Source: a virus
DNA: 64,000 nt
Virus genome (UHGV): UHGV-1550212
Strand: one strand, 5' to 3'
Shown here: positions 18,138 through 49,604 of the stretch, one piece after another
How positions within the stretch are numbered: the stretch's first letter is position 1
Layout: each line of letters starts with the position of its first letter
Position numbers and translations under genes: made by a program
Notes under the pieces: model-generated
Told to the model about the DNA's origin: nothing
Seen by the model: the letters and a program-made list of their open reading frames with translations, nothing else
The model's database searches: none

Positions 18138-18145
18138 TTGTACAA
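18138..18145 (-). promoter_or_regulatory. TTGTACAA promoter-associated motif upstream of nucleotidyltransferase-kinase gene
   Basis: lies in a ~40-nt block nearly identical to 25369..25408. Confidence 0.4.
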
Positions 18146-18182
18146 CATGCATTGCAAATTTGCAATGATACAACATGCATTG

Positions 18183-25368: not shown

Positions 25369-25453
25369 TTGTACAACATGCATTGCATATTTGCAATGAT
25401 ACAACATGCAAAATGCACTTGCACTTTGATGCAAAGTACTGCGTACACAACAT
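25369..25453 (-). promoter_or_regulatory. intergenic regulatory cassette: TTGTACAA motif plus 29-nt element duplicated at 26556..26584
   Basis: 25425..25453 tttgatgcaaagtactgcgtacacaacat is identical to 26556..26584; 25369..25408 nearly identical to 18138..18178. Confidence 0.45.
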
Positions 25454-25482
25454 GCATCGCGTATTTGCATTTTGACGCAATG

Positions 25483-26505
25483 TCATTGTTGTTTATGCCA
25501 GCCATATGATGCCTGACCAGCATCATACACTTCTACGAAGCCATGGTCGTACATAAAATCTTCATTACGAGTGCCCTTGCCCCCATTAGTGCCAAGAATA
25601 CGGTCTGCGCCATGCATAAGCAGCATATTATTTGTGACATGTTGCTTTGTCAGCATATTGAACCAGTGTTTGCTATATGACAAGCCAAGACCATCAAAGC
25701 CCAGCTTTGTGTACACACCACCGTCAAACTTGCTTAAATCACAATATGATAACACAGATTCAGGGTCATATGTCTTGATAAAGTGCTTAAAGATTCGTTC
25801 AGCACCACCAACAACTTTGGTTGCTGCACAAAGACGTAGCAATTCATATTGATAGCGCTTATTGTATCGTGGACGACCAAATGTCATAAGTTGATGAATG
25901 ACATAACCACCAAGCAACTCAAGTGGATGACCTTCAATCAACGCAAGATTGATAAAATTGCCTGAGCACTTGCCTTGCAAATGATGTTCAATCAAAAATT
26001 GATTTGCAGTATACTTGTCAATTTCAACAACTTTAAGCTTGCGAGCATATACAATCTTTGATTTGTCTACGATTTGATGCTTGATGTGATTGATAACTTT
26101 CTTGGCGTCATCCCAGTCCCACACATGAATGCAATGAAAGCCTGCTGATTTGGCGATGTCTGTTTTCTTTGCATGAATATCACAAGGCAAATGCGAATCT
26201 TTTGCATCATGCATAAACAGATGTTCAAATGAATGTGTGCTGTTATGTGAAAATGCAGGATTGATGTTAATGACAATATTGTCATGTCGAAAATCGAAGA
26301 CTTCATCGCCAATGACAAAGTTGCGCTCAAAATTTATACCGACATGTTTGAGTAACACTTGATGCCACACATCTTTATAGGCTGATTCAAGCTTGCTTAG
26401 CTCATCACAGTTTGCAATGTTTTTGTAACGTTGAATAGCAGCATCAAAGTCAAGATTGACTTCAGCGTAGTCTGCATTTTTATCGTAGTGAAATTTTGAG
26501 CTCAT
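25483..26505 (-). CDS. Vsr/DUF559-like nuclease-domain protein (paralog family; N-terminal nuclease module, extra C-terminal domain)
   Basis: NIVININPAFSHNS and GFHCIHVWDWDD match the family module; C-terminal GFVEVYDAGQ tail; ATG at 26505. Confidence 0.5.
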   Translation of the reverse strand: MSSKFHYDKNADYAEVNLDFDAAIQRYKNIANCDELSKLESAYKDVWHQVLLKHVGINFERNFVIGDEVFDFRHDNIVININPAFSHNSTHSFEHLFMHDAKDSHLPCDIHAKKTDIAKSAGFHCIHVWDWDDAKKVINHIKHQIVDKSKIVYARKLKVVEIDKYTANQFLIEHHLQGKCSGNFINLALIEGHPLELLGGYVIHQLMTFGRPRYNKRYQYELLRLCAATKVVGGAERIFKHFIKTYDPESVLSYCDLSKFDGGVYTKLGFDGLGLSYSKHWFNMLTKQHVTNNMLLMHGADRILGTNGGKGTRNEDFMYDHGFVEVYDAGQASYGWHKQQ

Positions 26506-26528
26506 GTGTATAATTTTGTATGAGATTA

Positions 26529-26536
26529 TTGTACAA
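26529..26536 (-). promoter_or_regulatory. TTGTACAA promoter-associated motif
   Basis: about 20 nt upstream of ATG 26505. Confidence 0.4.
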
Positions 26537-26612
26537 CATGCAAATGCATGTTGCATTTGATGCAAAGTACTGCGTACACAACATAAAGTACAAGTTTGTC
26601 TTTTGATAGACT

Positions 26613-27674
26613 TTACTTTGTATTGCTACGCGTCATTGTTAAATGACCGCAATCATACACATCAACTTCTGTTTTGCCAAGCATGCATGTATGACAATTT
26701 ATTTTGAAATCTGCTGCAGCGTAATCAGGATAGTTTAGTGGAGATTCTTTTGACAAATCAATTTCAATTGTGTCAGTAGTTTTAAGCTGTTCAGTACCTG
26801 CAATGATATCTGCAATAAGATTGATAACTTCTTCTTGTGAATCCCAATCAAACACAGTTATGCAACGATAGCCTACATCAAGTGCAAGTTTTGTTTTATT
26901 GTAATGGTATTGCGCACCAATAACATTGTTGTCTTTTGCTCGACCAGTTAAATATGCAAAACTAACAGTGCAGTTGTGCGTAACTGTTGGACAAATTTCT
27001 ATAAGTAACTTTGCAGGCTCATACTGCAAATCATATGTTTGATTATTGATGTTAAACTCGTACTGTGTATCAATTGCCAACTGTCGTAATAACGCATCAT
27101 GCCACATCATATTACATTTAGAAATTGTTTTGGATGACAATCTGCATTGAGGCAATTGACATGGCCAATCTACGCCGTACATTTGTTGTGTTGTTTGACG
27201 CATTTTGTTAACATCACCAAAATGATTGCCATATCGATGCTCTTTGGTTTTAAGCGACTGCTCAATATTGACATTGCCTACACAACCATAACGTTCAAGT
27301 TTTGTTGCAGCAGTTTTGCTAACATCACCATGTCCATTACCAAATTTGGCGACTTTAGTTGCAAGTATTTTATGACTTGGGCCAAATGCATTGCCATACA
27401 ATTCTTGTTTAGTCGCAAGCATTTTGTCGATATTACAACCAGCGCCATAAGTGTTATGCATAGTTTGCATACGCTGTCGAATAAATTTTGGCACAGATAA
27501 AGGACTTTCTACACCATATTTGCGTAAGCAACTGATTTTGCATGCGTACTTTTGCTTGATGACAGAATGTGCATTTCGACGTCCTATGTAAGTATTTTCT
27601 GATGTAGCAGCAAGCTCTGCATCTCTAAGAACTTCAAGTGCAGCAATTCGTGCTTCAATTTCTTCAGATGTCAT
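26613..27674 (-). CDS. RYG-repeat / Vsr-DUF559-like nuclease (putative free-standing homing endonuclease)
   Basis: seven ~21-aa tandem repeats each with R/K-Y-G (KYG, TYG, LYG, KFG, RYG, RYG, MYG); C-terminal LLIEICPTVTHNCT...GYRCITVFDWDS...VDVYDCGH. Confidence 0.55.
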   Translation of the reverse strand: MTSEEIEARIAALEVLRDAELAATSENTYIGRRNAHSVIKQKYACKISCLRKYGVESPLSVPKFIRQRMQTMHNTYGAGCNIDKMLATKQELYGNAFGPSHKILATKVAKFGNGHGDVSKTAATKLERYGCVGNVNIEQSLKTKEHRYGNHFGDVNKMRQTTQQMYGVDWPCQLPQCRLSSKTISKCNMMWHDALLRQLAIDTQYEFNINNQTYDLQYEPAKLLIEICPTVTHNCTVSFAYLTGRAKDNNVIGAQYHYNKTKLALDVGYRCITVFDWDSQEEVINLIADIIAGTEQLKTTDTIEIDLSKESPLNYPDYAAADFKINCHTCMLGKTEVDVYDCGHLTMTRSNTK

Positions 27675-29825: not shown

Positions 29826-31217
29826 TCATTTTTCAATCTTTTTGAGCAATGCATGACCACAATCATAGACTTCGACGAAGCCTGACGCAATCATTTGTTG
29901 CCTATCAAACCCATTGTCAAGTAGATGTTCCCATGTCTTTGTATTGTGCCAATGCAATTGAATTGATGATTTATCTGTACTAAGCTGCGGATTTTTTGAA
30001 AAGTCTGCACAGTCAATTTTGTCACCGTTAAGATGCTTACGAATGCATTCAATGACAGTGTCGTGGTCATCCCAGTCCCATATTGTTATGCATACATAGC
30101 CATGTTGTAATGCAATTTGTGTCTTGTCAAAATGACTATCATGTCTCTTTGGCCTATTACGCTTTGTGCGCTTAGTAATATATGCATATGAGTATGTTGA
30201 GTTATGCGAAAATGTTGGATTCACTTCAATCAACAATTTGCAATGTTCATTTTCATAATGCAAGTCATATGAAAAGCCAAGTAGCTTAACATCGTCATAA
30301 CTGCAATCAATGTTAAGCTCTTGTTGCAACTTATCATGCCAAAATTGATTTGGCTTAGATATTATGTTGCCTTGACTGTTTATGCAGTTAGAAGTCATAC
30401 ATGACCATGGCACGCCATAACGCTCAATGTTTGTTTTGTTTGCACTTGCTTGAATTTTTGACAATGGGCCCCATGGATGACCATACTTTGCACGCTTGAC
30501 ATCTGCACCACGTTTAGCAACTTCACGATAATCGCCATAACGCTCTTTTCTTGTAGCAAGCATTTTTGCAATATTGCCCGCGCCACGAGAGCCATATCTA
30601 AGCTCTTTAGTCTTTTGAGCTTTGGCGTAATCACCACAAAATGCATTGCCATATCGAGCAATTTTTGTTGCTTTCATTTTTTCAATGTTGCCTGCACCAG
30701 CATTGCCATAACGTTCAAGTTTTGTTTGCTTGGACAATTCAACATTGCCAAATTTGTTGCCATAACGCACTAATTTTGTTTCTTGTGAACGTTGACGTAT
30801 TTCTTGCACTTGTGCACAGTATTCTACGCCATAGCGTTTTAACATTGTTATTCGTTGATTATATGCACGTTTAATAGGTGCATGCGATGTTCGTTTTGGC
30901 CCATATTTAACAAACTCAGTAGATGCAAGTAATTCATCACGCTCACGTTCAAGTTCTGCAATTCGTTGTTGTATATGGACATCATACACAGGCTGCTCAG
31001 AAATGTCATCAATAGCTGTCGTTTCTAATTTAGCAAGTTTGCGTTTAAGAGCTTTTGTTGTTTGCGTGCAGCTCATTTTTATCAATGCATGTGCATGTCT
31101 GCCACAGTCAAGTACAATGTTAGGCTCATTTGCAAGGCGTTCATCACGTTTACATTCTGCAGCATGTATTGCATCAATAAGTTGTCGTCTCTTTACATTA
31201 TATTCGTCTTGTGTCAT
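29826..31217 (-). CDS. RYG-repeat / Vsr-DUF559-like nuclease (putative homing endonuclease)
   Basis: tandem repeats (KRYG, VRYG, ERYG, ARYG, LRYG, ERYG, AKYG, ERYG); C-terminal FSYDLHY...LLIEVNPTFSHNS...GYVCITIWDWDD...FVEVYDCGH. Confidence 0.55.
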   Translation of the reverse strand: MTQDEYNVKRRQLIDAIHAAECKRDERLANEPNIVLDCGRHAHALIKMSCTQTTKALKRKLAKLETTAIDDISEQPVYDVHIQQRIAELERERDELLASTEFVKYGPKRTSHAPIKRAYNQRITMLKRYGVEYCAQVQEIRQRSQETKLVRYGNKFGNVELSKQTKLERYGNAGAGNIEKMKATKIARYGNAFCGDYAKAQKTKELRYGSRGAGNIAKMLATRKERYGDYREVAKRGADVKRAKYGHPWGPLSKIQASANKTNIERYGVPWSCMTSNCINSQGNIISKPNQFWHDKLQQELNIDCSYDDVKLLGFSYDLHYENEHCKLLIEVNPTFSHNSTYSYAYITKRTKRNRPKRHDSHFDKTQIALQHGYVCITIWDWDDHDTVIECIRKHLNGDKIDCADFSKNPQLSTDKSSIQLHWHNTKTWEHLLDNGFDRQQMIASGFVEVYDCGHALLKKIEK

Positions 31218-31950: not shown

Positions 31951-32646
31951 TCATCGTACAGTGAATGAATTATCGTCATCTTCTGTAGTAGTTGGGTCAT
32001 CAATTACATCGTGGCCAATACCTGACATGGGCTCTGGCTCAGGTTCCGGTTCAGGTTCCGGTTCAGGTTCCGGTTCAGGCTCCGGTTCAGGTTCCGGTTC
32101 AGGTTCCGGTTCAGGTTCCGGTTCCGGTTCCGGTTCAGGTTCCGGTTCAGGTTCCGGCTTGGGCTTTGATGAATAGTTAAACATCTTGTGAATCCATTTG
32201 CACCACCATTTGTGACATGCATGTGCGCCATCATGATAATACGCTTGCAGCTCCATTGGAATTGCATGATATGCTTTGTCATGTGACATACCTTTGAATA
32301 TTCGCAAGTACACATAGCACAAGCAATATGCAATGTAGTACATAAGCGGTGATGCAAGCAGCCACCACCAGCTAAGCACATTGCATGCTGCAAGCACAAT
32401 AAGTACAAGCAACGTCGCAAGTGTTACAAAGATGAATTGCTTTGCATGCACAGCTTCATGCTTCAAGGTCTCAGAGTATCTGCTAAGTGTGTCATCATAT
32501 GACTTATCACTTCTTATGAAGCACATTGCACACAACGACATTGCATAATAATGTGAAAATGGAATGCATGGCTGGTCGATGACAAGCATTGGTCCAGCAA
32601 ACCACAGTCGCCACTGAGATTTATTTGGCAGTGTTGCAGTTTTCAT
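31951..32646 (-). CDS. membrane protein with HExxH motif and long (Pro-Glu)n repeat
   Basis: HEAVH motif next to two hydrophobic helices, then about 25 PE dipeptides and an acidic tail. Confidence 0.5.
32029..32160 (-). repeat. hexanucleotide tandem repeat (ggttcc/ggttca)n encoding (Pro-Glu)n
   Basis: about 22 near-perfect 6-bp units with a 12-bp super-period. Confidence 0.9.
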
Positions 32647-32709
32647 AAATGATGTTTATTGTTTGATGATGAAGACTGAAGAGCCGAAGCTCTTCAGTCT
32701 GTCAATTTG

Positions 32710-35704: not shown

Positions 35705-38700
35705 TTAGCCACGAATCAAGTCAACCAAGCGTTGCTGTTCAGGAGTCAATGAAGACTTTCCGCTGCCATCAATGTTTTCGTTAACGAAACCGACTGGCTG
35801 CTTAGTCGAATATGACTTGATTGCAGCCCAGTTACGTGAACGATAGAATGCTGCGACATCTGACTCATTTACGAAAGTGCGAACTGCTGCCTGAGTAGCA
35901 ATCAATGACTTCTGTTCAGGAGTCAAGCTTTCATAAATGTACTTGTATGCTGTTGGCATATGCTTCAGATACAATGGTGTATGGTCAATTGGCTGCAGGT
36001 TCTCATCCAAGACTGCTACACCAGCAGCATCATAGCGAGTTGCAAGCTGCTTTGTTTGACGACGCAATGCAGCAATTTCATGCTTGATGCTTGTCAAGCA
36101 TTCATCAGTTGCTTGTGCGCCAAGATATGTGCGAAGCATATCAGACAGCATCTTCTGATTTGCATCGGTCAAATCACCTGCAACTTCAATGCCAGTCAGC
36201 TGGCCATCTTTGCTGATGACTACAGAAATTGTAGAACCGTCGCGTTCAACTGTGCGGAAGTCAAAGTCATCGTATGACTTATCCTTAAGGACAGCTTCAC
36301 GAATATTGTCATCTACGCCTTCATTGACCATGCTCATGCATTCCTCAACATCTACGTCAAGTCCAAGCTCTTCTGCAGTTTCAGCAATCTTTTCTGCAAG
36401 CTGAGCTTTATTCTCAACTTTGTCAAGGTCTGCTGCATCTGATACAGCATCGACAAGTTCATCTGCCTGTGCACGAGTAATCGTTGAAGCATCAACAAGG
36501 CCATCAATGATTTGCTCTACATCTGCAGGTGTCGGCTTGTTGTCTTCTGCTGCTTCATTGATAAACTTGGCAGTCTTTGGCTTGTAGCTAAGCTTGCCCT
36601 CATTGACCATCTCATCCTGCAATTGTGCAGCGATGTATGCAATTAGCAATGACTTGTTGGCTTCAAGTTCATCGACTGCTTCAGCAGACTTTTGAGCTTT
36701 GATGAGTTCATCGTAAGCTGCTGCAACTTTGTCATCCATCGTAGACTTGTCAGGGTCAATGTTTTTGATGCATGTCTTGACAATATCATCCTGATAGAAC
36801 TTGTCAATGATTGATTTGTCTGTGTCAGAGTATGTTGCATATAACTTGTCTGCGACAATTGATTCATTGACAATCTTGCCTGGCTCAGATGCAGGAACAA
36901 GAGTCCACTTACCATCAACTTCTGCAACAATGCCTGAAGTCGATTCGCCATAAGTGACTGTTAGACGAGTGCCTGCTTCATTGTTGTCAATTGTGTTGAC
37001 GACTGCTTCGAATTCATTACCATCAGCGTCATAGATTTTGATGCTGTCACCGACAGCAGCTTCATCTACTGGTGCTTCGAAGAACTCTTTGACAAAGTTC
37101 TGAACATCAACGGGCAGACTGTCATATGGCTGTGATGCATAGTACTCTGAGTCAGCATCAAGGTAATTCTTTGAAAGCAGCCAAGCTTTTCGAGTAGCAA
37201 CATCTGCAGCATTCCAAGCATCGACTGACTCATCGCAGTCATCGACAAGTGCAAGATACTCATGGTCTTTCTTGTCATCAAAACGAAGAGTAATCTTTTG
37301 TTCGGGCTTGCCAGCAGGCCAAACTTCGACTTCAATTTCTGTAGTGCCTGCAACATTTTTGACTGTGCCTACAACAATCTTGTCGCCTTTGTTGATGCCA
37401 TTAGACATGTCGTATGGTGCTTCAATAGATTCATCTGTCGACTGAGCTCGAATTGCTGCAGCAATAGCATTACGAGATTCATTGTCGAACATCTCCCATG
37501 TAGCATTCGCAGCATCTTCTACACCAATCTTGTCTTTGCCAACCTGCTCAATCAACTGATTGCGGTCAGCTACTGAAGCATTGTACCACCAGTCTGCAGC
37601 AGTGTCAGATGCTTCATTGACAAATGCATTGAGCAATGCAGTCTGAACGTTATCAGGCAACTTGTCAAAGTCAACAAGCTCTACGTCATCTGCAATATTT
37701 GCTTGCTTTGCTGTTGCTTTACGGCCATCTGCATCAGACTTATTCCAGTCATCAATGAATGCCTGTTCAGCAGCAGATTCATCAAGCGCTTTGACAGTTT
37801 CATATCGACCGTCATACAGCATGTACTTATCGCCTTCTTTGATGGCTACAGACTCCTTGCCATTGTACTTGAATGACACTTTGTCACCATTGAAGCCGGT
37901 CAATTCAGCTGTGATTTTATCGCCATTCTTGTCATACACTTCAACTGTCTGCTCTTCATCAATGTTCAAGTGCTTCTTGAGTGCATCTACAAGTTCTTTG
38001 CCAAGAGCGTCTTCATTGTCATGGGCTTGCTGGAAGCAATCTTCATCTGACTTGTCAGGCTGAACAGCTTTCAATGCTGTTGCCCGATTAAGCATTGACA
38101 TCGTGCCCCAGATTGACATGAAGCTTTTGCCCTCATTGTCTTGTGCTTCGGCTTCGTCAATTGCATCAATGTCTTTCTCAAGCATTGCATGATGAGCAAT
38201 GTCGATGCCAGACCATTTCGTCTTTGCATTATATGGCAAACCAATATGCTTCGACAAAATTGACTGACGTTGGTCATCTGTGAATGAATCCCAAGCTTCG
38301 CCAAGTGTTGCATGCTTTGCTTCATCAGCAGCAAATTCTGTTTCAATCTTAAGTTTGTGGTCCTTGTCAATCAGTTGCCACTTGGCATTTGGACGATAGA
38401 ACTCAGACAATGACAGCTTGTCAAGAATGACTTTGCGTTCGTCATCTGACAATTCGTCCCACTTGTTGTCAGCAGATTCATCGATGTTGACGAGTTCTTT
38501 CTCAATGAGATTCTTGTCAAGCATTGCATCAATGATTGGCTGCTGGGCTTCTGCTGGAATGTCTTTGAACGACTTAATTGCAATGACAGCGTCTTTGTCA
38601 TCAACTTTAGCAGCTTCAACAATTTCTGTCTTCACTTCATCAGTCAAAGCGCCCCAAGCAGCATCGAGATAATCAAAGTTGAGAGCTTCATCACATTCAA

Positions 38701-39820
38701 CAATGCCATACTGCTTTGCAATGTCATTGTGCTTGTCAAGATTGCTGTTGAGTTCAGCTTCAATTGCTGCTTTGATGTCATCAATTGACTTATCTTCAAC
38801 TTCAAGCTCAAGAGCTTTTGCAAGTTCAGTCAATGCTGCATCATCAAGCTTGCTAATGTCATAAGGCTTAGCATCTTCATTTGTGAAGTCAATGCCAAGC
38901 AAAGACATTGCTTGCTTCTTGTTTTCTTCTGAGAGTGCATCGAATGCAGTTGCAAGACCGACATCGGTGTAGTCGCACCCAACTTCGTCAAGTAATGCTT
39001 CGACTTTCTGGATGTTTTCTACGCCAACTTCGTTAGCATCAGCATTGTTGTATGCCTCAACAAAACGTGATTGGTTTGTCATGGTAGTGAAATCTTCTAT
39101 TGATTCGTTTATGAGTTGCTGTTTGAGTGCATCCAATGATGCTGAGCCAATCAATGCATCAGGGAATAGCTTCTGCAACATACCTGTACGTGCAAGCTCA
39201 ATCAATTGGAGCATCAATGAGTTTGGCGAGTCTTCGTCATCTACAGATTCACAAATGAGAGTGTCTTTTGATTCATTAACTGAACCGACAAGATTGAACT
39301 CTGCATTCGAAAAGCCTGGCTGTGCAACCAAATCAAATGTCACGATTTTGAGAAGCTGAACTCTGCCAGTAGTTGGATTGACTACGCCAAGGGCGCGACT
39401 TGAAATGAACAATGGCGAACCTGCTGTAACAATTGCCCATGCAATGCGACCTGCAGGCGTATCAAGAATTGTAATGTAGCCTTCAAAACGTCGTTTTTCA
39501 GGATTCCATTCAATACTGTCCAATCTGTGGCTTACGTTTCCATAACGTACAGTACGTCGCTTAACATGTTCAAGTTCGCCAAGAAGTCGCTTTGCTTTAA
39601 TTGCAGGTTGCAATGCCTGTACTTGAGCAAAGTAATTCTCAAAGTCATACGTGCGCCCATTTTCGTTTTTCTGGTCCATGTATGCATACACGCCAAAAAG
39701 ACGACCAAGTGCGCCGCTTGGCACATGAGAATCTTCTGCTTCAACTACAAACTGACAATCTGCGCGGCTTTCAAGCATAAGTGAGGCTTCCCTGCCTTTG
39801 TACTTATATGACTTTGCCAT
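35705..39820 (-). CDS. prohead protease-like N-terminal domain fused to ~1200-aa acidic scaffold-like region
   Basis: N-terminal ~190 aa with GELEHVKRR and LFISSRALGVV (gp21-like His/Ser context); remainder highly acidic with nine aliphatic-N-E motifs; ATG at 39820. Confidence 0.5.
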   Translation of the reverse strand: MAKSYKYKGREASLMLESRADCQFVVEAEDSHVPSGALGRLFGVYAYMDQKNENGRTYDFENYFAQVQALQPAIKAKRLLGELEHVKRRTVRYGNVSHRLDSIEWNPEKRRFEGYITILDTPAGRIAWAIVTAGSPLFISSRALGVVNPTTGRVQLLKIVTFDLVAQPGFSNAEFNLVGSVNESKDTLICESVDDEDSPNSLMLQLIELARTGMLQKLFPDALIGSASLDALKQQLINESIEDFTTMTNQSRFVEAYNNADANEVGVENIQKVEALLDEVGCDYTDVGLATAFDALSEENKKQAMSLLGIDFTNEDAKPYDISKLDDAALTELAKALELEVEDKSIDDIKAAIEAELNSNLDKHNDIAKQYGIVECDEALNFDYLDAAWGALTDEVKTEIVEAAKVDDKDAVIAIKSFKDIPAEAQQPIIDAMLDKNLIEKELVNIDESADNKWDELSDDERKVILDKLSLSEFYRPNAKWQLIDKDHKLKIETEFAADEAKHATLGEAWDSFTDDQRQSILSKHIGLPYNAKTKWSGIDIAHHAMLEKDIDAIDEAEAQDNEGKSFMSIWGTMSMLNRATALKAVQPDKSDEDCFQQAHDNEDALGKELVDALKKHLNIDEEQTVEVYDKNGDKITAELTGFNGDKVSFKYNGKESVAIKEGDKYMLYDGRYETVKALDESAAEQAFIDDWNKSDADGRKATAKQANIADDVELVDFDKLPDNVQTALLNAFVNEASDTAADWWYNASVADRNQLIEQVGKDKIGVEDAANATWEMFDNESRNAIAAAIRAQSTDESIEAPYDMSNGINKGDKIVVGTVKNVAGTTEIEVEVWPAGKPEQKITLRFDDKKDHEYLALVDDCDESVDAWNAADVATRKAWLLSKNYLDADSEYYASQPYDSLPVDVQNFVKEFFEAPVDEAAVGDSIKIYDADGNEFEAVVNTIDNNEAGTRLTVTYGESTSGIVAEVDGKWTLVPASEPGKIVNESIVADKLYATYSDTDKSIIDKFYQDDIVKTCIKNIDPDKSTMDDKVAAAYDELIKAQKSAEAVDELEANKSLLIAYIAAQLQDEMVNEGKLSYKPKTAKFINEAAEDNKPTPADVEQIIDGLVDASTITRAQADELVDAVSDAADLDKVENKAQLAEKIAETAEELGLDVDVEECMSMVNEGVDDNIREAVLKDKSYDDFDFRTVERDGSTISVVISKDGQLTGIEVAGDLTDANQKMLSDMLRTYLGAQATDECLTSIKHEIAALRRQTKQLATRYDAAGVAVLDENLQPIDHTPLYLKHMPTAYKYIYESLTPEQKSLIATQAAVRTFVNESDVAAFYRSRNWAAIKSYSTKQPVGFVNENIDGSGKSSLTPEQQRLVDLIRG

Positions 39821-39953
39821 ATTTGAATTGTGTTTGAAAGTTTGCAAATTTTTGTTGTTATTGATTATATATGCAAGGCAGACTTGTGTGTTGAAAAATT
39901 GCAAAATTTCAGTTATGTGTACATAACAAAACCATCCAAATCAATTCAATTAT

Positions 39954-40622
39954 ATGTCAACAAACAATCATGGCAAGCTCAGATTGCTTGAGCTCAAAGA
40001 AGCACAGCCATATGACACGCTCAAAATTGGCATTGACGTATCAGTAGATGCTACTGGCATGTGCATGATATTTGGCAAAACTGTTGCGCTGTTCAAATTT
40101 ACGCCGCACTTGCCACCAGAAGATGACAGTTCAGATGATGTGAATTTTGTGCAGTTCAACAAAATCTATCTGCAAACATCATCTTCTGCAAGAGAACGCT
40201 CAAAAATGCATACTCGACACACACTTGCAAACAAGATTGTTGACGCGATTGATATGTTCATGCAGGAAATTTGGCCGAATAGCCCAGCAAACATTCAAAT
40301 TGTTACAGAAGGGTCTGCATATGGCTATGCCGCACACAACTCTAACAGCTTGGTAGAACTTGCTGAATTTAGAAGCGTGATTTTAGAAAGAGTCTATCAT
40401 CGTTGGCCACTCGGCACGCATCTAAGTCTTGACGTTATTGCGCCAAAATCATTGAAGAAACATGCAACCGGTGACGGCAAAGCAGACAAACTAAAGATGA
40501 TTGAAGCTGCAATTGCTAAGTTGACACACATTCATTGGGCAGGCAAAATTGACGATGAATGCGATGCATTGCATCTTTGTCTGTATGAGCCATTAAGCAA
40601 TCCTGAACCACGACTTTGGTGA
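39954..40622 (+). CDS. RuvC-like Holliday junction resolvase
   Basis: KIGIDVSVDATG (catalytic Asp region), IVTEGSAYG, KSLKKHATGDGKADKLKM and DECDALHLCLY parallel RuvC motifs. Confidence 0.55.
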   Translation: MSTNNHGKLRLLELKEAQPYDTLKIGIDVSVDATGMCMIFGKTVALFKFTPHLPPEDDSSDDVNFVQFNKIYLQTSSSARERSKMHTRHTLANKIVDAIDMFMQEIWPNSPANIQIVTEGSAYGYAAHNSNSLVELAEFRSVILERVYHRWPLGTHLSLDVIAPKSLKKHATGDGKADKLKMIEAAIAKLTHIHWAGKIDDECDALHLCLYEPLSNPEPRLW

Positions 40623-41167: not shown

Positions 41168-42961
41168 TCAATTTTGTGTTGCAACGTCATCAGTCTTGTT
41201 ATCAACTGGCTCATCGTCGACATGTGTATCAACATCAATGCCAGAAGCTGCAGCAAGTGAAACATCATTAGCGACGCCTTGTTGTTCAAGTTGTTGTTGA
41301 GCTTGCTTTGTTTGAATTGCGACAAGTCTTGCAGCTTCCATTGCAAGCTTAAGATTCTCTTGAAGTTCGATATCAAGCTGTTCAGCATTAGCTTGCATGT
41401 CTTCTTTGCTTAAGCCAAGATACTTGTTGATAAGCCAATTGCTTGAGAAGAATGGGCGTTCAGTATCAGACATGTTAAGTGAACGAACAAGTGAACTGCG
41501 AATGTCTTCGATTGTATGAATACGCTTCTGAAGCAATGTGAGCTCCATTTGCGTCTGGAAATGATTGTATCTATTGAATTTGAGTTTTAGCGCATTCAAA
41601 ACTTCATTGTCGCCAATGTAGTTATTGTTTTTGATGCACATCAAAACATACACAGGCTTCAATATGATTGCAATGCCAAATCTACGCATCAAAGCTGAAA
41701 TAAAGATTGCAAAACGACGCTCATCACGCTGAATTGACTCTTCAGAAACATTCCACATGCCACCGCCATCATCGAATCTGCTTAGAGGCAGCTTTGACAG
41801 ACGTTGTAAGTTATTGCGGAAATATGTGACTGCTGAAGTATCAGATAAGTCAGGCATGCCTGTGCCAATTGTTTGAATGTTGGGTTTGCCTGCATTAGTG
41901 TCAGCCATCCAAAATTCGCTATTGAAAGGCACAGATGCTTCGCCATTAACTTGGAGTTCGCCGGTTTGATTGTCGAATTCAATTTTTTCGTGGTACTTAT
42001 TCATTGCTTTACGCAATGTTTCCTGTGCAGCAGCTTTCAGTTTACCGCCAGTAGGAATTGTGATAAGTGAACGAAAACGAGAAGCTGTCGTAGCATATGC
42101 AATGCGACTTCGCTCCAAAATCCTGAGCAAGTTGAATGCACGAACAAGACGCTCAAAATATGACATAGACCCAACCATGTCATCGTTCCACTGCAAATAT
42201 GCTACTTGCGAATCAAGCAAGTTGATTTTTTCTGAGTTGTTAGACACAAATGCTGGTGCTTTGACATCAAACATTGTATGTGTCTTGAACATATCTTGTT
42301 GAGACTTATCATACTGCCAGAAGAACATTTCACCCTTCTTCATAGGCGTCAATGCAAATGCATTCAACTTTTTGATGCCAACAATATCAGTCGGCTCATC
42401 TGCATTATCAAACACAATCTCATAGCCAAGTCTGCCTCGTACAAGATATTCACGCAACAATGCTCTAACATCTTGTTTGCGAGGTTCAGAGTTCAACCCA
42501 TTGAATGCATACATCAAATAGACTTGCTTGAATGCATCCATAAAGTCATCTTTGATTGTCTGCTTTGCTGTGTCGTCTATCTCAAGTTTATCGATGTCAC
42601 AAAAATCAGGCTCGCAAAAGAAATTACTATCGGAATTGAACACGATGCACTCATCAATCATGCGGTCAAGAATGTCGTCGAGTTCCGGTTCTGCACTTAA
42701 GATGTCATATTTTTTGGCTCGAAGATAACTTGTCAATCCAAAAAGATTCTTTTTAGGTGACTCTTTCTGATTGAACACGTCATCAGTAGACAACACAACA
42801 ACTTCTTGGTCATTGATGTTATGCTCACCTGTATATGCTGCTTTCTCCAAATCTGCATCAGACCCAGACTTGTGCACATTCAATTGCTGCAATGGACTGT
42901 CTTTCGGAATTGAGCGTAATGCATCAGTTCCCAGATATGTTCGTTTGGTCTTTTTAGCCAT
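41168..42961 (-). CDS. portal protein (gp20-like), putative
   Basis: 597 aa, basic N-terminus and acidic C-terminal tail; segment KDDFMDAFKQVY...RALLREYLVRGRLGYEIV fits the portal pattern; located upstream of protease/scaffold. Confidence 0.5.
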   Translation of the reverse strand: MAKKTKRTYLGTDALRSIPKDSPLQQLNVHKSGSDADLEKAAYTGEHNINDQEVVVLSTDDVFNQKESPKKNLFGLTSYLRAKKYDILSAEPELDDILDRMIDECIVFNSDSNFFCEPDFCDIDKLEIDDTAKQTIKDDFMDAFKQVYLMYAFNGLNSEPRKQDVRALLREYLVRGRLGYEIVFDNADEPTDIVGIKKLNAFALTPMKKGEMFFWQYDKSQQDMFKTHTMFDVKAPAFVSNNSEKINLLDSQVAYLQWNDDMVGSMSYFERLVRAFNLLRILERSRIAYATTASRFRSLITIPTGGKLKAAAQETLRKAMNKYHEKIEFDNQTGELQVNGEASVPFNSEFWMADTNAGKPNIQTIGTGMPDLSDTSAVTYFRNNLQRLSKLPLSRFDDGGGMWNVSEESIQRDERRFAIFISALMRRFGIAIILKPVYVLMCIKNNNYIGDNEVLNALKLKFNRYNHFQTQMELTLLQKRIHTIEDIRSSLVRSLNMSDTERPFFSSNWLINKYLGLSKEDMQANAEQLDIELQENLKLAMEAARLVAIQTKQAQQQLEQQGVANDVSLAAASGIDVDTHVDDEPVDNKTDDVATQN

Positions 42962-42981
42962 TTTTGTATTGCTTTGAATAT

Positions 42982-44220
42982 CTATACACGTCTTGTCAAT
43001 TTGACATGACCGCAGTCATCTGCAAGCAGTTTAACATGACCGCAGTCATCTGCAAGCAGTTTAACATGACCGCAGTCATAAACTTTGACGAAGCCTGCAT
43101 CAATCATAGTTTGCTCATCATGATTGCAGTCAAGCACATGTGTATGAGTTTTCATATTGTACCAATGCAAGCCGATGTAAAAGTCAGTCTTGTGATATGC
43201 GTCAGTATATAATCGTGGGTCATCTATAGACAAATCAAGTTCGACGCAGTCAGCAGTCTGCAGTTGTTCTGTGTCAGTTAGCAATGATTTGACAAGCTTG
43301 ACTACAGCATCAAATGACATCCAATCAAATACAGTGATGCATCTATAGCCATGTTGCATAGCTGTGCAACATTTGTCAAAATGCGTAGTTGATGCAATTG
43401 GCTTGTTGACTGTAGAACGACCAGTAGCAAAATCAAATGCAAATGTGCTGTTATGCGTAAATGACGGATTGACATCAATTAGCAAATTGTCATATCGCAA
43501 ATCAAATGCGTAGCAATCTACGTCATGTTCATATTCAAAATCAACACCAGTATGCTCAAGTAGCATATCATGTAACAAGACGTTTGGCTTTGTAATGATT
43601 TTGCCATTTGCAAGTCTGCACTTCTGAGTTAAACAATGCCAAGGCACGCCATATCGTTCAAGTGTAGTGTTGCTAATCTTCTGCAAATTGCCAAAACCGC
43701 TGCCATAGCGTAATTGCTTTGTGACTGTTTGCTGTGCAACATTACCATTAGCATGACCAAACTTGTTGATGTTTGTTTGCTTGCGCTTAGCATTTGCAGT
43801 TGCAATATCAACAGATTCAAGTGACTCAAGAAATTTTGACATGTCGCCAAGCCCATTGCCATATAGTTGACGTTTAGTGTCAACAACTTTTGTCATGTTC
43901 CAGTGCTTGTAGCCATATCGAGCTTCTTTTGTCGCAAATGCTTTGTCATAGTTGCCAAAGCCTGCATGACCATATCGTTCAACTTTTGTTGCAGCAATTT
44001 TGTCTGAGACTTCTTTAAGCTGATGTTTGTATTCAACGCCAAACTTGCGCAAATTTGATATGCGAATGTTGAACACTCGTTTGACTTTTGTATGCGTAGA
44101 GCCTTTGTCAAGCTTTGCATATGGAATTTGTGCAAGTGCAGCGTCTCTTTCATCTTCAAGCTCTCTTATTCGAGCTTCAAGTGCATCACCAGCCAAAACT
44201 TCTATGCGTATAGTCTGCAT
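42982..44220 (-). CDS. RYG-repeat / Vsr-DUF559-like nuclease with C-terminal tandem decapeptide repeat
   Basis: N-terminal ALEARIRELEDERD coiled coil, RYG repeats, LLIDVNPSFTHNS...GYRCITVFDW...FVKVYDCGH; C-terminus DCGHVKLLAD repeated three times. Confidence 0.55.
   Translation of the reverse strand: MQTIRIEVLAGDALEARIRELEDERDAALAQIPYAKLDKGSTHTKVKRVFNIRISNLRKFGVEYKHQLKEVSDKIAATKVERYGHAGFGNYDKAFATKEARYGYKHWNMTKVVDTKRQLYGNGLGDMSKFLESLESVDIATANAKRKQTNINKFGHANGNVAQQTVTKQLRYGSGFGNLQKISNTTLERYGVPWHCLTQKCRLANGKIITKPNVLLHDMLLEHTGVDFEYEHDVDCYAFDLRYDNLLIDVNPSFTHNSTFAFDFATGRSTVNKPIASTTHFDKCCTAMQHGYRCITVFDWMSFDAVVKLVKSLLTDTEQLQTADCVELDLSIDDPRLYTDAYHKTDFYIGLHWYNMKTHTHVLDCNHDEQTMIDAGFVKVYDCGHVKLLADDCGHVKLLADDCGHVKLTRRV
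43001..43080 (-). repeat. 30-bp tandem direct repeat (about 2.7 copies) at the 3' end of the nuclease gene
   Basis: ttaacatgaccgcagtcatctgcaagcagt repeated. Confidence 0.85.
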
Positions 44221-44279
44221 TGCAATTTGTTGTCAAATCGCGAACTTCATATGTTGTCATTGACTCATTCATAGTCGCA

Positions 44280-45041
44280 TCAAATCATTCTGTTATCACT
44301 AACTGCAAAGTTGATATTGTTGTCTTTCAGATATTGCATGTATCGCTGAAAAATCTGGTCAGCTGTCAGTTTTTCATAATGATTCGATGGAATGAAGATT
44401 GCTTTAGACCAATCTTCATATTTGAACTCAATCAAGCCTGTCATTCGTGGTGGCAAATATGAACGAAATGCGAATGCTGCGCCATACTTTGTGACAAGTG
44501 AGCCAACTTGCTGCCATGTCATATGCACTGCAGTTTGTTCAGAACGATACATCTCGCCTTTGTATTTAGACGCAAATGCTTTGAAGACAGTCTCAATGAC
44601 AAGAAAACGAACTTCAAGAGGCAAGTGGTGCAAGTTTACACCCATGCTGACTACTGAGCCGTCCTTTGCAATATAATACGACAATGACAAAATTAACGGC
44701 GCGCAGTCGTACCAATCAAGTACATCTGCATGCTTTGGATTGTCATACACAAACATGTACAATTTCCCAGGTTCCATGTACTTTCTGCGAATCTGCACAT
44801 CAGGATTCGTAGCATATGATTTGAACCATGCAGCAGCTTCTCTACCACCGTTTGGCATTTTGTACCATGGATTGCTTCGAATTTCTTTGCCAAGGTCATA
44901 TTGACCGGACTTTACCAAACGATTGAATAATCGTTGTGCTGCAGTCAATATTGAACGTCCTACTGACTTCGCTTTGTCAATAAAAGACGTTTTTGCTTGT
45001 GTATCTAATGAATTAAACTTGGGCATATCTTTATGCAGCAA
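44280..45041 (-). CDS. hypothetical protein (253 aa)
   Basis: ORF track. Confidence 0.45.
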   Translation of the reverse strand: MLHKDMPKFNSLDTQAKTSFIDKAKSVGRSILTAAQRLFNRLVKSGQYDLGKEIRSNPWYKMPNGGREAAAWFKSYATNPDVQIRRKYMEPGKLYMFVYDNPKHADVLDWYDCAPLILSLSYYIAKDGSVVSMGVNLHHLPLEVRFLVIETVFKAFASKYKGEMYRSEQTAVHMTWQQVGSLVTKYGAAFAFRSYLPPRMTGLIEFKYEDWSKAIFIPSNHYEKLTADQIFQRYMQYLKDNNINFAVSDNRMI

Positions 45042-45187: not shown

Positions 45188-45637
45188 TCATTTGAAGAAT
45201 CGTTCTGTAATGATTTTGAACTTGATATTTTGTTGTTTGCAGTATGCAATGGTGGCATTCCACTTCGCAACATTTTTGCGATATGTTTCTTTCGCATAAT
45301 TTGATGCTGACCGACTTGGACATTGTGTTTCATGCCACGGTTTCACTTCAACGATATATGTAGAATCTGCAGTTTTGAACAAAAAGTCAGGCCAATATGT
45401 ATGAGTTACGCCATCAAGCTCATATACAATTGGCAGAGTCTCAGATGACCAAGCAAGCACTTTTGAACTCATGTCACAAAGCTTGCAAAATCTGAATTCA
45501 AGTGAACTGCGGTATATGATTGTCTTGTCTGTCGCATCTTTGCCTTTGTACTTATCTGGGTTCATACATCTGTAGTAGCCTTGCTTATACGGTCCAGATT
45601 TGTTTGGCTTAAGTTGCTTAATGTTCATTGCAGTCAC
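45188..45637 (-). CDS. hypothetical protein with PD-(D/E)XK-like motif
   Basis: WPDFLF...YIVEVKP suggests a D...E-x-K nuclease core; weak. Confidence 0.35.
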   Translation of the reverse strand: MTAMNIKQLKPNKSGPYKQGYYRCMNPDKYKGKDATDKTIIYRSSLEFRFCKLCDMSSKVLAWSSETLPIVYELDGVTHTYWPDFLFKTADSTYIVEVKPWHETQCPSRSASNYAKETYRKNVAKWNATIAYCKQQNIKFKIITERFFK

Positions 45638-47781: not shown

Positions 47782-48405
47782 TTATGCATTGGCAATTTCA
47801 GATGGCATTCTGAACTTGATGTCATTATACACAAATGTCAATGTGAATGTCATCACGTTCTGGTCTACACGAGTTTTGTCATATGTGAGTTCTGAAATTG
47901 CAGAAAACACGACATCAATGAAGTCGATGCCAAACAATGGTTTCTTTGCACCGCCATATGTCGCTACAAATCTGCAGGGCTGAAAGTAGATAGTTTCGCG
48001 TTTATCGTTAGCGTATCTGAACAAACTCTCTAAGCAACAAAAATAGCTTAAACCACCATTCGTCAATCTGCATGTCACCTGGATTCGCTTATCAAGTGCT
48101 TGATGAATTGTCTTGCTGCCCTTATGAAACTGTGTAATTGACTTCTTCATGCCACTGTCATCAAGAACTTTATTGACATTCTGAGTAACAATTGGCATCG
48201 ATATGCCCATCAATGACACAGACTGAATTGAATCATGCAACAAGTCATTGATGTCATAAATGATTTGTGTTGGTTGTTGCACAAACACTTTATTGTAAGT
48301 ATCAGCAATATCTTGCGGAATCAAATCAATTGGCAAGTCAAAGCGAAACTGGTCTGACCGTGTATCGAGAATGAGCATATTTTTGATAATTTGTTTATGT
48401 ACCAT
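47782..48405 (-). CDS. hypothetical protein (207 aa)
   Basis: ORF track. Confidence 0.45.
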   Translation of the reverse strand: MVHKQIIKNMLILDTRSDQFRFDLPIDLIPQDIADTYNKVFVQQPTQIIYDINDLLHDSIQSVSLMGISMPIVTQNVNKVLDDSGMKKSITQFHKGSKTIHQALDKRIQVTCRLTNGGLSYFCCLESLFRYANDKRETIYFQPCRFVATYGGAKKPLFGIDFIDVVFSAISELTYDKTRVDQNVMTFTLTFVYNDIKFRMPSEIANA

Positions 48406-49604
48406 TAACTGTCATACGACCAGTGACCACAGTCATACACTGGCACAAATCCAGTGTCAAGCATTTCTTGCTCAATAAAGCCATCATCAAGCAAATGTTC
48501 ACCTGACTTCGTATTGACCCAATGCTTCTTAATTGTGCATTCATCAACCACAAAGGGATTAAGTGCATTGTCAGTGCAATCAATGAACACATTATTCAAA
48601 TGCGCGTCAATGACATGCAGCACAATTTCTGGGTTGTGCCAATCAAATATCATAAGTGGCGTGTAGCCACATACAATTGCAAGTTGTTGCTTCCACCAAT
48701 GATAGTTTGGCTGTTTTGCTTCTGCGGCATTTCGTTTAAAGCCATACACGCTATTATGAGTATGCGTCGGGTTAACGTCAATTAGCAGATTGCCATAATA
48801 CAGGTCATATGATGTTATGCCAACATCATGTTCAAACTCAAAATGCACACCAAGATGTTCTTCAATGTATGATTGCCACCATCTGTTTGGCGCAGATATG
48901 ATTTGCCCATTTGCTTGCATACATTTATTTGTCATGCAAAACCATGGCACACCGTAACGTTCCATACAGGTTTTTGAAATTGCAGCAAGCCATTCATCTT
49001 TGTCTCTATGCGGCCATGCATAACCATAACGCAGACGACATGTTTGTTGAGCTTTAGCAACGATTGGCGCTAAACGTTCACCGTATATTTCACGTTTAGT
49101 TGCGATGGCTTTGCGTGGATTAGTCCATCCAGCATCACCCCATCGCTCAAGCTTCGTTTGCTGAGATTTTTCAACAATCAGTTCAAGATTCTCACCATAT
49201 TTTTGACGACGAGTTTGCATTGCTGCAACATAATCTGTAATGCATCTATGGCCATACAAACGTTCTTTTGTCGCACTATGTGCTTTATCGCCATATGAAC
49301 TGCCGTAGCGTGCAACTTTAGTGGCAATTGTTTGCTTGATGTTGCCTGCTTTAGAACCATAACGAGCTTCTTTAGTTGCTACGCATTTTTGTTTGACTTC
49401 TGCTCTGTTCCAATTATGCTCAACGCCATGTTTACGAAGATGGCCAATTTTCATGTTGTACACGTTTTTGATATGACCATGAGATGTCTTACGTGGTGCA
49501 TATCGTACAAATGGTGTTTCTGCAAGCAACTTATCTCGTTCAGCTTCAAGCTCTTTAATTCGAGCTTCAAGAGCTTCACCAGTCAAATGCTCTACATGTT
49601 TCAT
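48405..49604 (-). CDS. RYG-repeat / Vsr-DUF559-like nuclease (putative homing endonuclease)
   Basis: N-terminal ALEARIKELEAERD, tandem RYG repeats, LLIDVNPTHTHNS...GYTPLMIFDWHN...FVPVYDCGH. Confidence 0.55.
   Translation of the reverse strand: MKHVEHLTGEALEARIKELEAERDKLLAETPFVRYAPRKTSHGHIKNVYNMKIGHLRKHGVEHNWNRAEVKQKCVATKEARYGSKAGNIKQTIATKVARYGSSYGDKAHSATKERLYGHRCITDYVAAMQTRRQKYGENLELIVEKSQQTKLERWGDAGWTNPRKAIATKREIYGERLAPIVAKAQQTCRLRYGYAWPHRDKDEWLAAISKTCMERYGVPWFCMTNKCMQANGQIISAPNRWWQSYIEEHLGVHFEFEHDVGITSYDLYYGNLLIDVNPTHTHNSVYGFKRNAAEAKQPNYHWWKQQLAIVCGYTPLMIFDWHNPEIVLHVIDAHLNNVFIDCTDNALNPFVVDECTIKKHWVNTKSGEHLLDDGFIEQEMLDTGFVPVYDCGHWSYDS

Follow-up and report, generated by a model that had tools for sequence, protein, structure and literature searches.

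The EDxHD or Vsr-like homing endonucleases include I-Bth0305I and the phage Hef-type enzymes, and I-Bth0305I acts as a dimer on pseudo-palindromic sites and has no zinc site (PMC3239194). In phages, homing-endonuclease genes undergo gene conversion and domain shuffling and are located at recombination boundaries (Barth, Dunham and Seed, 2023, PMC10055350). Tandem gain of copies next to a homing endonuclease gene of a T4-like phage is represented by SegB in phage T6, which is reported to amplify whole gene segments under host-defence selection (PMC13096335). Microbial in-frame minisatellites, or VNTR loci, consist of head-to-tail units of 10-100 bp that keep the reading frame and vary in copy number among independent isolates, with slippage or unequal exchange as their likely engine. 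To our knowledge, no C-terminal tandem cassette has been reported in EDxHD/Vsr-like homing endonucleases.

The feature described here was found in the virus genome UHGV-1550212, of which a stretch of 64,000 nt was analysed (the window, to which all positions refer unless a contig is named), and it joins an in-frame minisatellite with probable gene conversion between paralogs, in selfish genes of a T4-like gut phage. It resembles VNTR loci in its head-to-tail 30-bp unit, in the preserved reading frame and in the occurrence of one, two or three copies among natural strains. It differs from them because the unit of the host gene is common to three diverged paralogs at separate loci, because it is anchored on a conserved motif of the catalytic domain and because its first copy does not appear to come from local sequence. 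A high-identity patch within diverged paralogs, mosaic C-terminal segments and a nuclease gene at the boundary between diverged and near-identical flanks are all shared with the phage homing-endonuclease system cited above (PMC10055350), but the exchanged piece measures only 30-60 bp here and is neither a domain nor a multi-kilobase island. Likewise, the gain of tandem copies recalls SegB, except that a 30-bp unit within a candidate nuclease gene is affected rather than whole gene segments (PMC13096335). Compared with other EDxHD/Vsr-like enzymes, the host protein carries N-terminal modules made of DUF7487-type YGxxxGN repeats instead of NUMOD domains, and an extra beta-rich subdomain that ends in VYDCGH follows the Vsr core. 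The explanation that we consider likely is that a cassette common to three paralogous nuclease genes was distributed by short-patch recombination and then expanded locally, with an extra protein tail that is probably near-neutral.

The host gene and its repeat array

The array is located in a free-standing homing-endonuclease-like ORF of 412 aa (42982..44220, minus strand), here termed the host gene. Its neighbourhood is a T4-like structural module with a gp2-like end protector, a gp4-like head closure protein, the gp20 portal, a prohead protease, the sheath and a gp23-like capsid protein. Directly downstream lies the portal protein gene, a homolog of T4 gp20 (41168..42961, minus; Portal_T4, E 3.8e-59; phrog_213), and directly upstream a gp2-like DNA end protector gene (44280..45041, minus; phrog_429, E 4e-29), whose counterpart in relatives is annotated as Phage_T4_gp2. 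The portal of the nearest deposited phages is only ~33% identical, and the host gene has neither a DNA nor a protein match among GenBank phages. In the same part of the window, head-maturation-protease homology was detected inside a 1411-aa ORF (35705..39940, minus), which is adjacent to a RuvC-like resolvase gene (39954..40622, plus), the sole clear plus-strand gene of that part.

The host protein combines an N-terminal coiled-coil and DUF7487-type repeats with a C-terminal Vsr-like nuclease domain, and the catalytic domain has the Vsr-like PD-(D/E)xK fold, in agreement with the initial annotation of the gene as a nuclease paralog. Residues D240, H256, N257, H280 and D299 are invariant in 25 family sequences. 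The arrangement of D240, N251 and H256 (+11/+16) resembles that of D196, N208 and H213 in I-Bth0305I (+12/+17) in its spacing along the sequence. The N-terminal half consists of helical repeats with YGxxxGN motifs and matches DUF7487 with 24.8 bits, which is under the cut-off of 27 bits, while three paralogs score above it; the term DUF7487 itself occurs in no paper of the literature searched. The host protein has no match to NUMOD domains, and a sequence search of solved structures as well as a search of NCBIfam returned nothing significant.

Scanning the window with tblastn identified three full paralogs and one divergent family member, all on the same strand as the host gene and all without the cassette. 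The full paralogs comprise 353 aa (26613..27674, minus; C-terminus VYDCGHLTMTRSNTK), 463 aa (29826..31217, minus; C-terminus VYDCGHALLKKIEK) and 399 aa (48405..49604, minus; C-terminus VYDCGHWSYDS), and the divergent member comprises 360 aa (25483..26565, minus; C-terminus VYDAGQASYGWHKQQ). These proteins stop 5-13 residues past VYDCGH or VYDAGQ (1-15 residues past VYDCGH across the paralogs), as had been noticed for the paralogs at the outset, and the cassette is also absent from >100 members of other paralog clusters. The divergent member is devoid of N-terminal YGxxxGN repeats, and an extra domain of ~190 aa separates its nuclease core from the VYDAGQ motif at its end; it thereby resembles distant homologs of 500-620 aa (P0017-P0030). 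Two orthologs of the 463-aa paralog, P0095 and P0103, are 10 residues longer (…KKIEK[C/W]PFSQFNQCQ); their tails were rejected as cassettes and represent read-through of a stop codon that is mutated to Cys or Trp. Additionally, the motif GCATGTTGTRYM occurs six times on the coding strand (0.47 expected; 18139..18178, 25370..25455 and 26530..26541, minus). Its sites fall into intergenic stretches and downstream of nuclease paralogs, and it is also found after a nuclease gene outside the window (the third locus below, contigs L061 and L062). A function as a promoter or other regulatory signal of the phage is possible.

Tandem Repeats Finder reports the array of the host gene at 43000..43079 with a period of 30, 2.7 copies, 98% matches and a score of 153, the second-highest tandem-repeat score within the window. 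The strongest repeat (32039..32157, 12-nt period, 9.9 copies, 96% matches) belongs to another ORF (31951..32655, minus), whose small product appears to be membrane-associated and has a run of ~24 Pro-Glu dipeptides close to its C-terminus. In the host gene, the longest exact tandem run extends over 46 nt compared with 10-11 nt in shuffled windows, so that the head-to-tail arrangement exceeds chance, and the 30-nt period preserves the reading frame. The unit encodes the ten residues DCGH-x-KLLAD and is composed of the DCGH codons, the last conserved motif of the family, plus 18 nt that are missing from the single-copy gene. Unit 1 (43048..43077, minus; GACTGCGGTCATGTTAAACTGCTTGCAGAT) specifies DCGHVKLLAD at residues 382-391, unit 2 (43018..43047, minus; residues 392-401) shows 0 differences to it, and the resident copy (42997..43017, minus) departs from both by two synonymous differences. 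The resident gene end (42985..43017, minus; GACTGCGGTCATGTCAAATTG ACAAGACGTGTA) encodes DCGHVKL TRRV at residues 402-412, is identical to the entire tail of single-copy alleles and completes the C-terminus ...VYDCGHVKLLADDCGHVKLLADDCGHVKLTRRV of the 412-aa protein. A near-perfect 30-bp repeat of about 2.7 copies had been annotated from position 42982 onwards: the repeat and its near-perfection are borne out, but this start is part of the stop codon TAG (42982..42984, minus; separated by 20 nt from the start codon of the portal gene downstream), and the repeat proper begins at 42997 or 43000.

Copy-number alleles and cassettes at three loci

At 90% identity, the host protein belongs to a cluster of 61 members from human-gut metagenomes. 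Most of the listed members have one copy and end in VYDCGHVKLTRRV (e.g. P0001 and P0032), and the one-copy protein P0032 alone was found on 24 contigs. Two copies are present in P0043 (contig L005), which ends in VYDCGHVKLLADDCGHVKLTRRV; this contig represents an independent strain with just 94% identity to the window, and a private synonymous change distinguishes its resident copy. The three-copy allele occurs in the window and in L016, which is 100% identical over 7.2 kb and hence does not provide independent confirmation. The suspected length-variable locus is therefore real, with one-, two- and three-copy alleles in public assemblies.

The same cassette is present at two further loci, and all contigs compared derive from human-gut metagenomes and one phage group. 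The second locus lies outside the window and harbours a paralog upstream of a sigma-factor-like gene, with a 527-aa gene on the other side. Its proteins P0009 and P0012 share 33-34% identity with the host protein and end in VYDCGHAKLLADDCGHC, and their DNA carries GACTGCGGTCATGCTAAACTGCTTGCAGAT, which is identical to the unit of the window at 29/30 nt and is placed immediately 5' of the resident DCGH codons, i.e. at the same codon position as in the host gene. Over the 123 nt upstream of the motif, the host gene and the second-locus contig L048 are identical at only 60/123 positions (49%), and blastn detects little else that the two genes share. One-copy alleles of this locus are found in L049 and L050 (ending DCGHC) and in L059 (ending DCGHALLTRRS), two-copy alleles in L047, L048 and L060, and three-copy alleles in L057 and L058, the units of L058 being diverged; multi-copy alleles are the majority. 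The tail of L049 and L050 appears to be the product of a 4-nt deletion in DCGHALLTRRS, since the old tail is readable out of frame past the new stop.

At the third locus, which is likewise outside the window and has a nuclease gene between a 246-aa gene and a 377-aa gene, L062 has one copy (…DCGHAR) and L061 three copies (…DCGHAKQLIDDCNHAKLLAYDCGHAR) between the same flanks, and copy number thus varies among independent samples at all three loci. The two-unit block of L061 is identical to that of L058 at 55/60 nt and in the same order, compared with 84/123 positions (68%) in their flanks. Furthermore, L058 and L061 have derived changes in common, namely a Leu codon turned into CAG (Gln) in unit 1 and the Gly codon changed to AGT or AAT in unit 2. 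Both pairs, host gene with L048 and L058 with L061, accordingly display a short tract that is far more similar than its surroundings, and in the second pair derived substitutions are shared across loci. Three observations thus argue for the transfer of patches of 30-60 bp between paralogs: identity rises abruptly at the cassette, derived substitutions are shared, and the insertion point is the same.

Origin of the unit and the gp2-portal boundary

The single-copy allele of the host gene reads GTTTAT followed by GACTGCGGTCATGTCAAATTG and ACAAGACGT (also given as GTTTAT, GACTGCGGTCATGTCAAATTG and ACAAGACGTGTATAG), and the 3' part of the unit, CTGCTTGCAGAT (its last 9-12 nt), is missing from it, with a best match of 9/12. 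The codons differ as well: the unit contains GTT AAA CTG, the resident copy GTC AAA TTG and the second-locus paralog GCT AAA CTG. Within the second-locus lineage, the best matches to the filler are 11/12 in inverted orientation (TICKHW codons) and 10/12 in direct orientation (MIAD codons); each of these candidate sources has p ~0.01 and they are mutually exclusive. A scan of the metagenome collection for a filler donor with 18-mers gave 30 matches, all attributable to chance with flanks of ~25% identity, nothing related was found in IMG/VR, and among the homologs examined no lineage has a native ...AKLLAD... tail. Many paralogs have near-identical C-terminal segments joined to different N-terminal parts, which indicates that recombination among paralogs is frequent. 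Given that CTGCTTGCAGAT is absent from the one-copy allele and that the unit exists at two other loci, the first extra copy was most likely acquired by transfer between paralogs.

The proposed course of events comprises three steps. First, the unit would have arisen in another paralog lineage, for which the second-locus paralog is the best candidate; an origin outside the host gene is suggested by the common and diverged arrays at the second locus, by the filler matches and by the positions at which the unit departs from the resident copy and agrees with the second-locus unit. Next, short-patch gene conversion or ectopic recombination would have copied the unit into the host gene, with the conserved DCGH codons, TATGA(C/T)TG(C/T)GGTCAT, as homology on both sides, to yield the two-copy allele. 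Finally, replication slippage or unequal exchange would have added one unit to generate the three-copy allele. Here, the near-palindromic core ATGACTGCGGTCAT may let copies pair with each other; as single-stranded DNA, the three-copy allele is predicted to fold with -21 kcal/mol (z -4.8) compared with -4.9 kcal/mol for the one-copy allele. The direction of transfer, from the second locus to the host gene, is deduced from sequence diversity, allele frequency and filler similarity and should be read as putative. The unit of the window and that of the putative donor are one base apart (GTT versus GCT), which calls for an additional mutation or an unsampled donor. The initial annotation had assigned the whole triplication to slippage or unequal recombination, an assignment that is plausible for the step from two to three copies but fails for the first step, as CTGCTTGCAGAT is locally absent and the unit is present at two other loci.

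The gp2-portal junction (42962..44279) exists in three states. It holds the host gene in the window and close relatives, it is empty in L064 (5257..5383 of that contig, a 127-nt gap), and in L063 (5258..6521) it contains an unrelated ORF of 372 aa, weakly similar to TnsA/endonuclease I, together with a remnant of the host gene (last 36 nt). Contig L001 was rejected as an occupancy witness for this site since it represents a different locus. The TnsA-like endonuclease N-terminal domain that is weakly detected in the replacement ORF of L063 is also matched by the gp4-like head closure gene of the window (45188..45637, minus; E 1e-17). Judged from these states of presence, absence and replacement at a fixed site, the host gene behaves like a free-standing homing-endonuclease gene, with an activity that is predicted from sequence. 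The non-coding remnant of L063 (TTGCAGAT continuing into GACTGCGGTCATGTCAAATTGACAAGACGTGTATAG…) is identical at 67/67 nt to the 3' end of the host gene and the portal start, and in the 8 nt that precede it all positions agree with the cassette filler (8/8), compared with 3/8 for the one-copy allele. Across the site, gp2 of L063 is 73% identical and its portal 97% identical. The filler match and the contrast between gp2 and portal identity place a recombination boundary at the 3' end of the nuclease gene and at the cassette.

These observations also bear on the age of the cassette. The nearest relatives of the three-copy gene body are one-copy alleles, at 4-7 differences over 185 aa, and 14 differences separate it from the two-copy allele; alleles of the host gene that bear the cassette are thus not each other's nearest relatives. 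It follows that the cassette either moved among strains or was gained and lost repeatedly, and at the gp2-portal locus it may be older than a simple recent event would imply. Of the recent origin assumed at first, the last step from two to three copies is plausible, because the added units are identical, but the cassette as a whole is not uniformly young in view of its diverged backgrounds and the L063 remnant.

Alternative explanations and significance

In the structure model (mean pLDDT 69), the last beta-strand covers residues 377-390, with the first DCGH at its end, and residues 393-412 have pLDDT values below 50. Non-first copies replace the family-invariant Gly (DCSH, DCNH, DCAH). Together with the low pLDDT, this makes the extra copies look weakly constrained, i.e. 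only the first DCGH appears to keep its structural position and the remainder looks like a disordered C-terminal tail. A model of moderate confidence and a handful of substitutions thus suggest that the extra copies are probably close to neutral. The high frequency of multi-copy alleles at the second locus, where they are the majority, and the spread of the cassette to three loci could nevertheless reflect selection on a protein feature, with additional DCGH-x-KLLAD modules that contribute metal binding or oligomerisation or tune the nuclease. Residues C196, C201, C383 and H385 are invariant or nearly so and could form a C-x4-C...C-x-H site, and P0166, in which the first copy is DCGY and the second retains DCGH, gives a hint of redundancy. 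This explanation is unlikely all the same: besides the predicted disorder and the loss of the invariant Gly in several non-first copies, the motif reads DCGQ or DAGQ in distant members of the family, so that a Cys/His metal site is not general, and I-Bth0305I functions without zinc (PMC3239194), both of which weaken a zinc site at DCGH. Nor can the open frame be taken as a sign of selection, since a 30-nt period keeps the frame automatically.

A purely local event, in which slippage or unequal crossing-over triplicated the host gene's own 30 bp, would readily account for two identical added units in a head-to-tail, in-frame array whose near-palindromic core favours slipped intermediates. It would leave unexplained why no single-copy allele contains 12 nt of the unit (CTGCTTGCAGAT), why two further positions differ from the resident copy and match the unit of the paralog, and why the unit is present at two other loci; slippage can cover the step from two to three copies only, and we regard a wholly local origin as quite improbable.

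Comparably poor prospects are assigned to the idea that the array is a DNA-level element, with the near-palindromic DCGH core as a preferred site of breakage or strand exchange, possibly cut by a nuclease of the family, and with the units as repair scars. The breakpoint in L063 is in line with it, as homology resumes inside the cassette (8/8 filler nt, then 67/67 nt) and the identity of gp2 and portal differs sharply across the site (73% and 97%), and so is the placement of the cassette at the same codon at three loci. Dimers of the I-Bth0305I type act on pseudo-palindromic sites (PMC3239194), homing endonucleases are located at recombination boundaries (PMC10055350), and they can drive local tandem amplification (PMC13096335). 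However, a family nuclease with this specificity would be self-destructive, since its own gene contains the conserved motif, recombination among paralogs that is limited by homology predicts the same clustering of breakpoints without site-specific cutting, and the array contains no promoter or terminator signal. If this hotspot reading were true, the units would both record and promote the exchange and replacement of homing-endonuclease genes, and a recombination hotspot would lie at the conserved 3' end of the family's genes.

An assembly artefact, i.e. a short repeat mis-resolved by the assembler in a genome with one true copy, had been named as the outcome that would overturn the annotation and is very improbable, even though the three-copy allele is known from the window and L016 only, and L016 may share the sample of the window. 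With a longest exact repeat of 46 nt, the copy number is determined by any k-mer of at least 47 or by one read of ~100 nt, and this repeat is covered by single reads as well as by the final k-mers in common use (55-141). Moreover, the two-copy strain is independent and has a private substitution, and independent samples contain arrays of three copies with diverged units at two other loci. A regulatory role was rejected as the main explanation, because neither a sigma-70-like promoter nor an intrinsic terminator was found in the array and because its distance to the downstream gene differs among loci (39 nt to the portal start here, at least 117 nt elsewhere).

Short-patch recombination among paralogs followed by local expansion remains the preferred explanation. 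Taken alone, the array is a small polymorphism in the length of a selfish gene that is probably near-neutral and can be used as a strain-typing marker for this gut phage group. In a wider context, it provides a natural example of patches of 30-60 bp that move between homing-endonuclease paralogs otherwise 30-45% identical. Such patches are anchored on ~15 bp of conserved codons, and their movement helps to explain the mosaic nature of phage nuclease families. In addition, the array and the L063 remnant put breakpoints exactly where the nuclease gene ends on its 3' side, beside the essential portal gene, a placement that fits the emerging view that homing-endonuclease genes mark the boundaries of genetic exchange.
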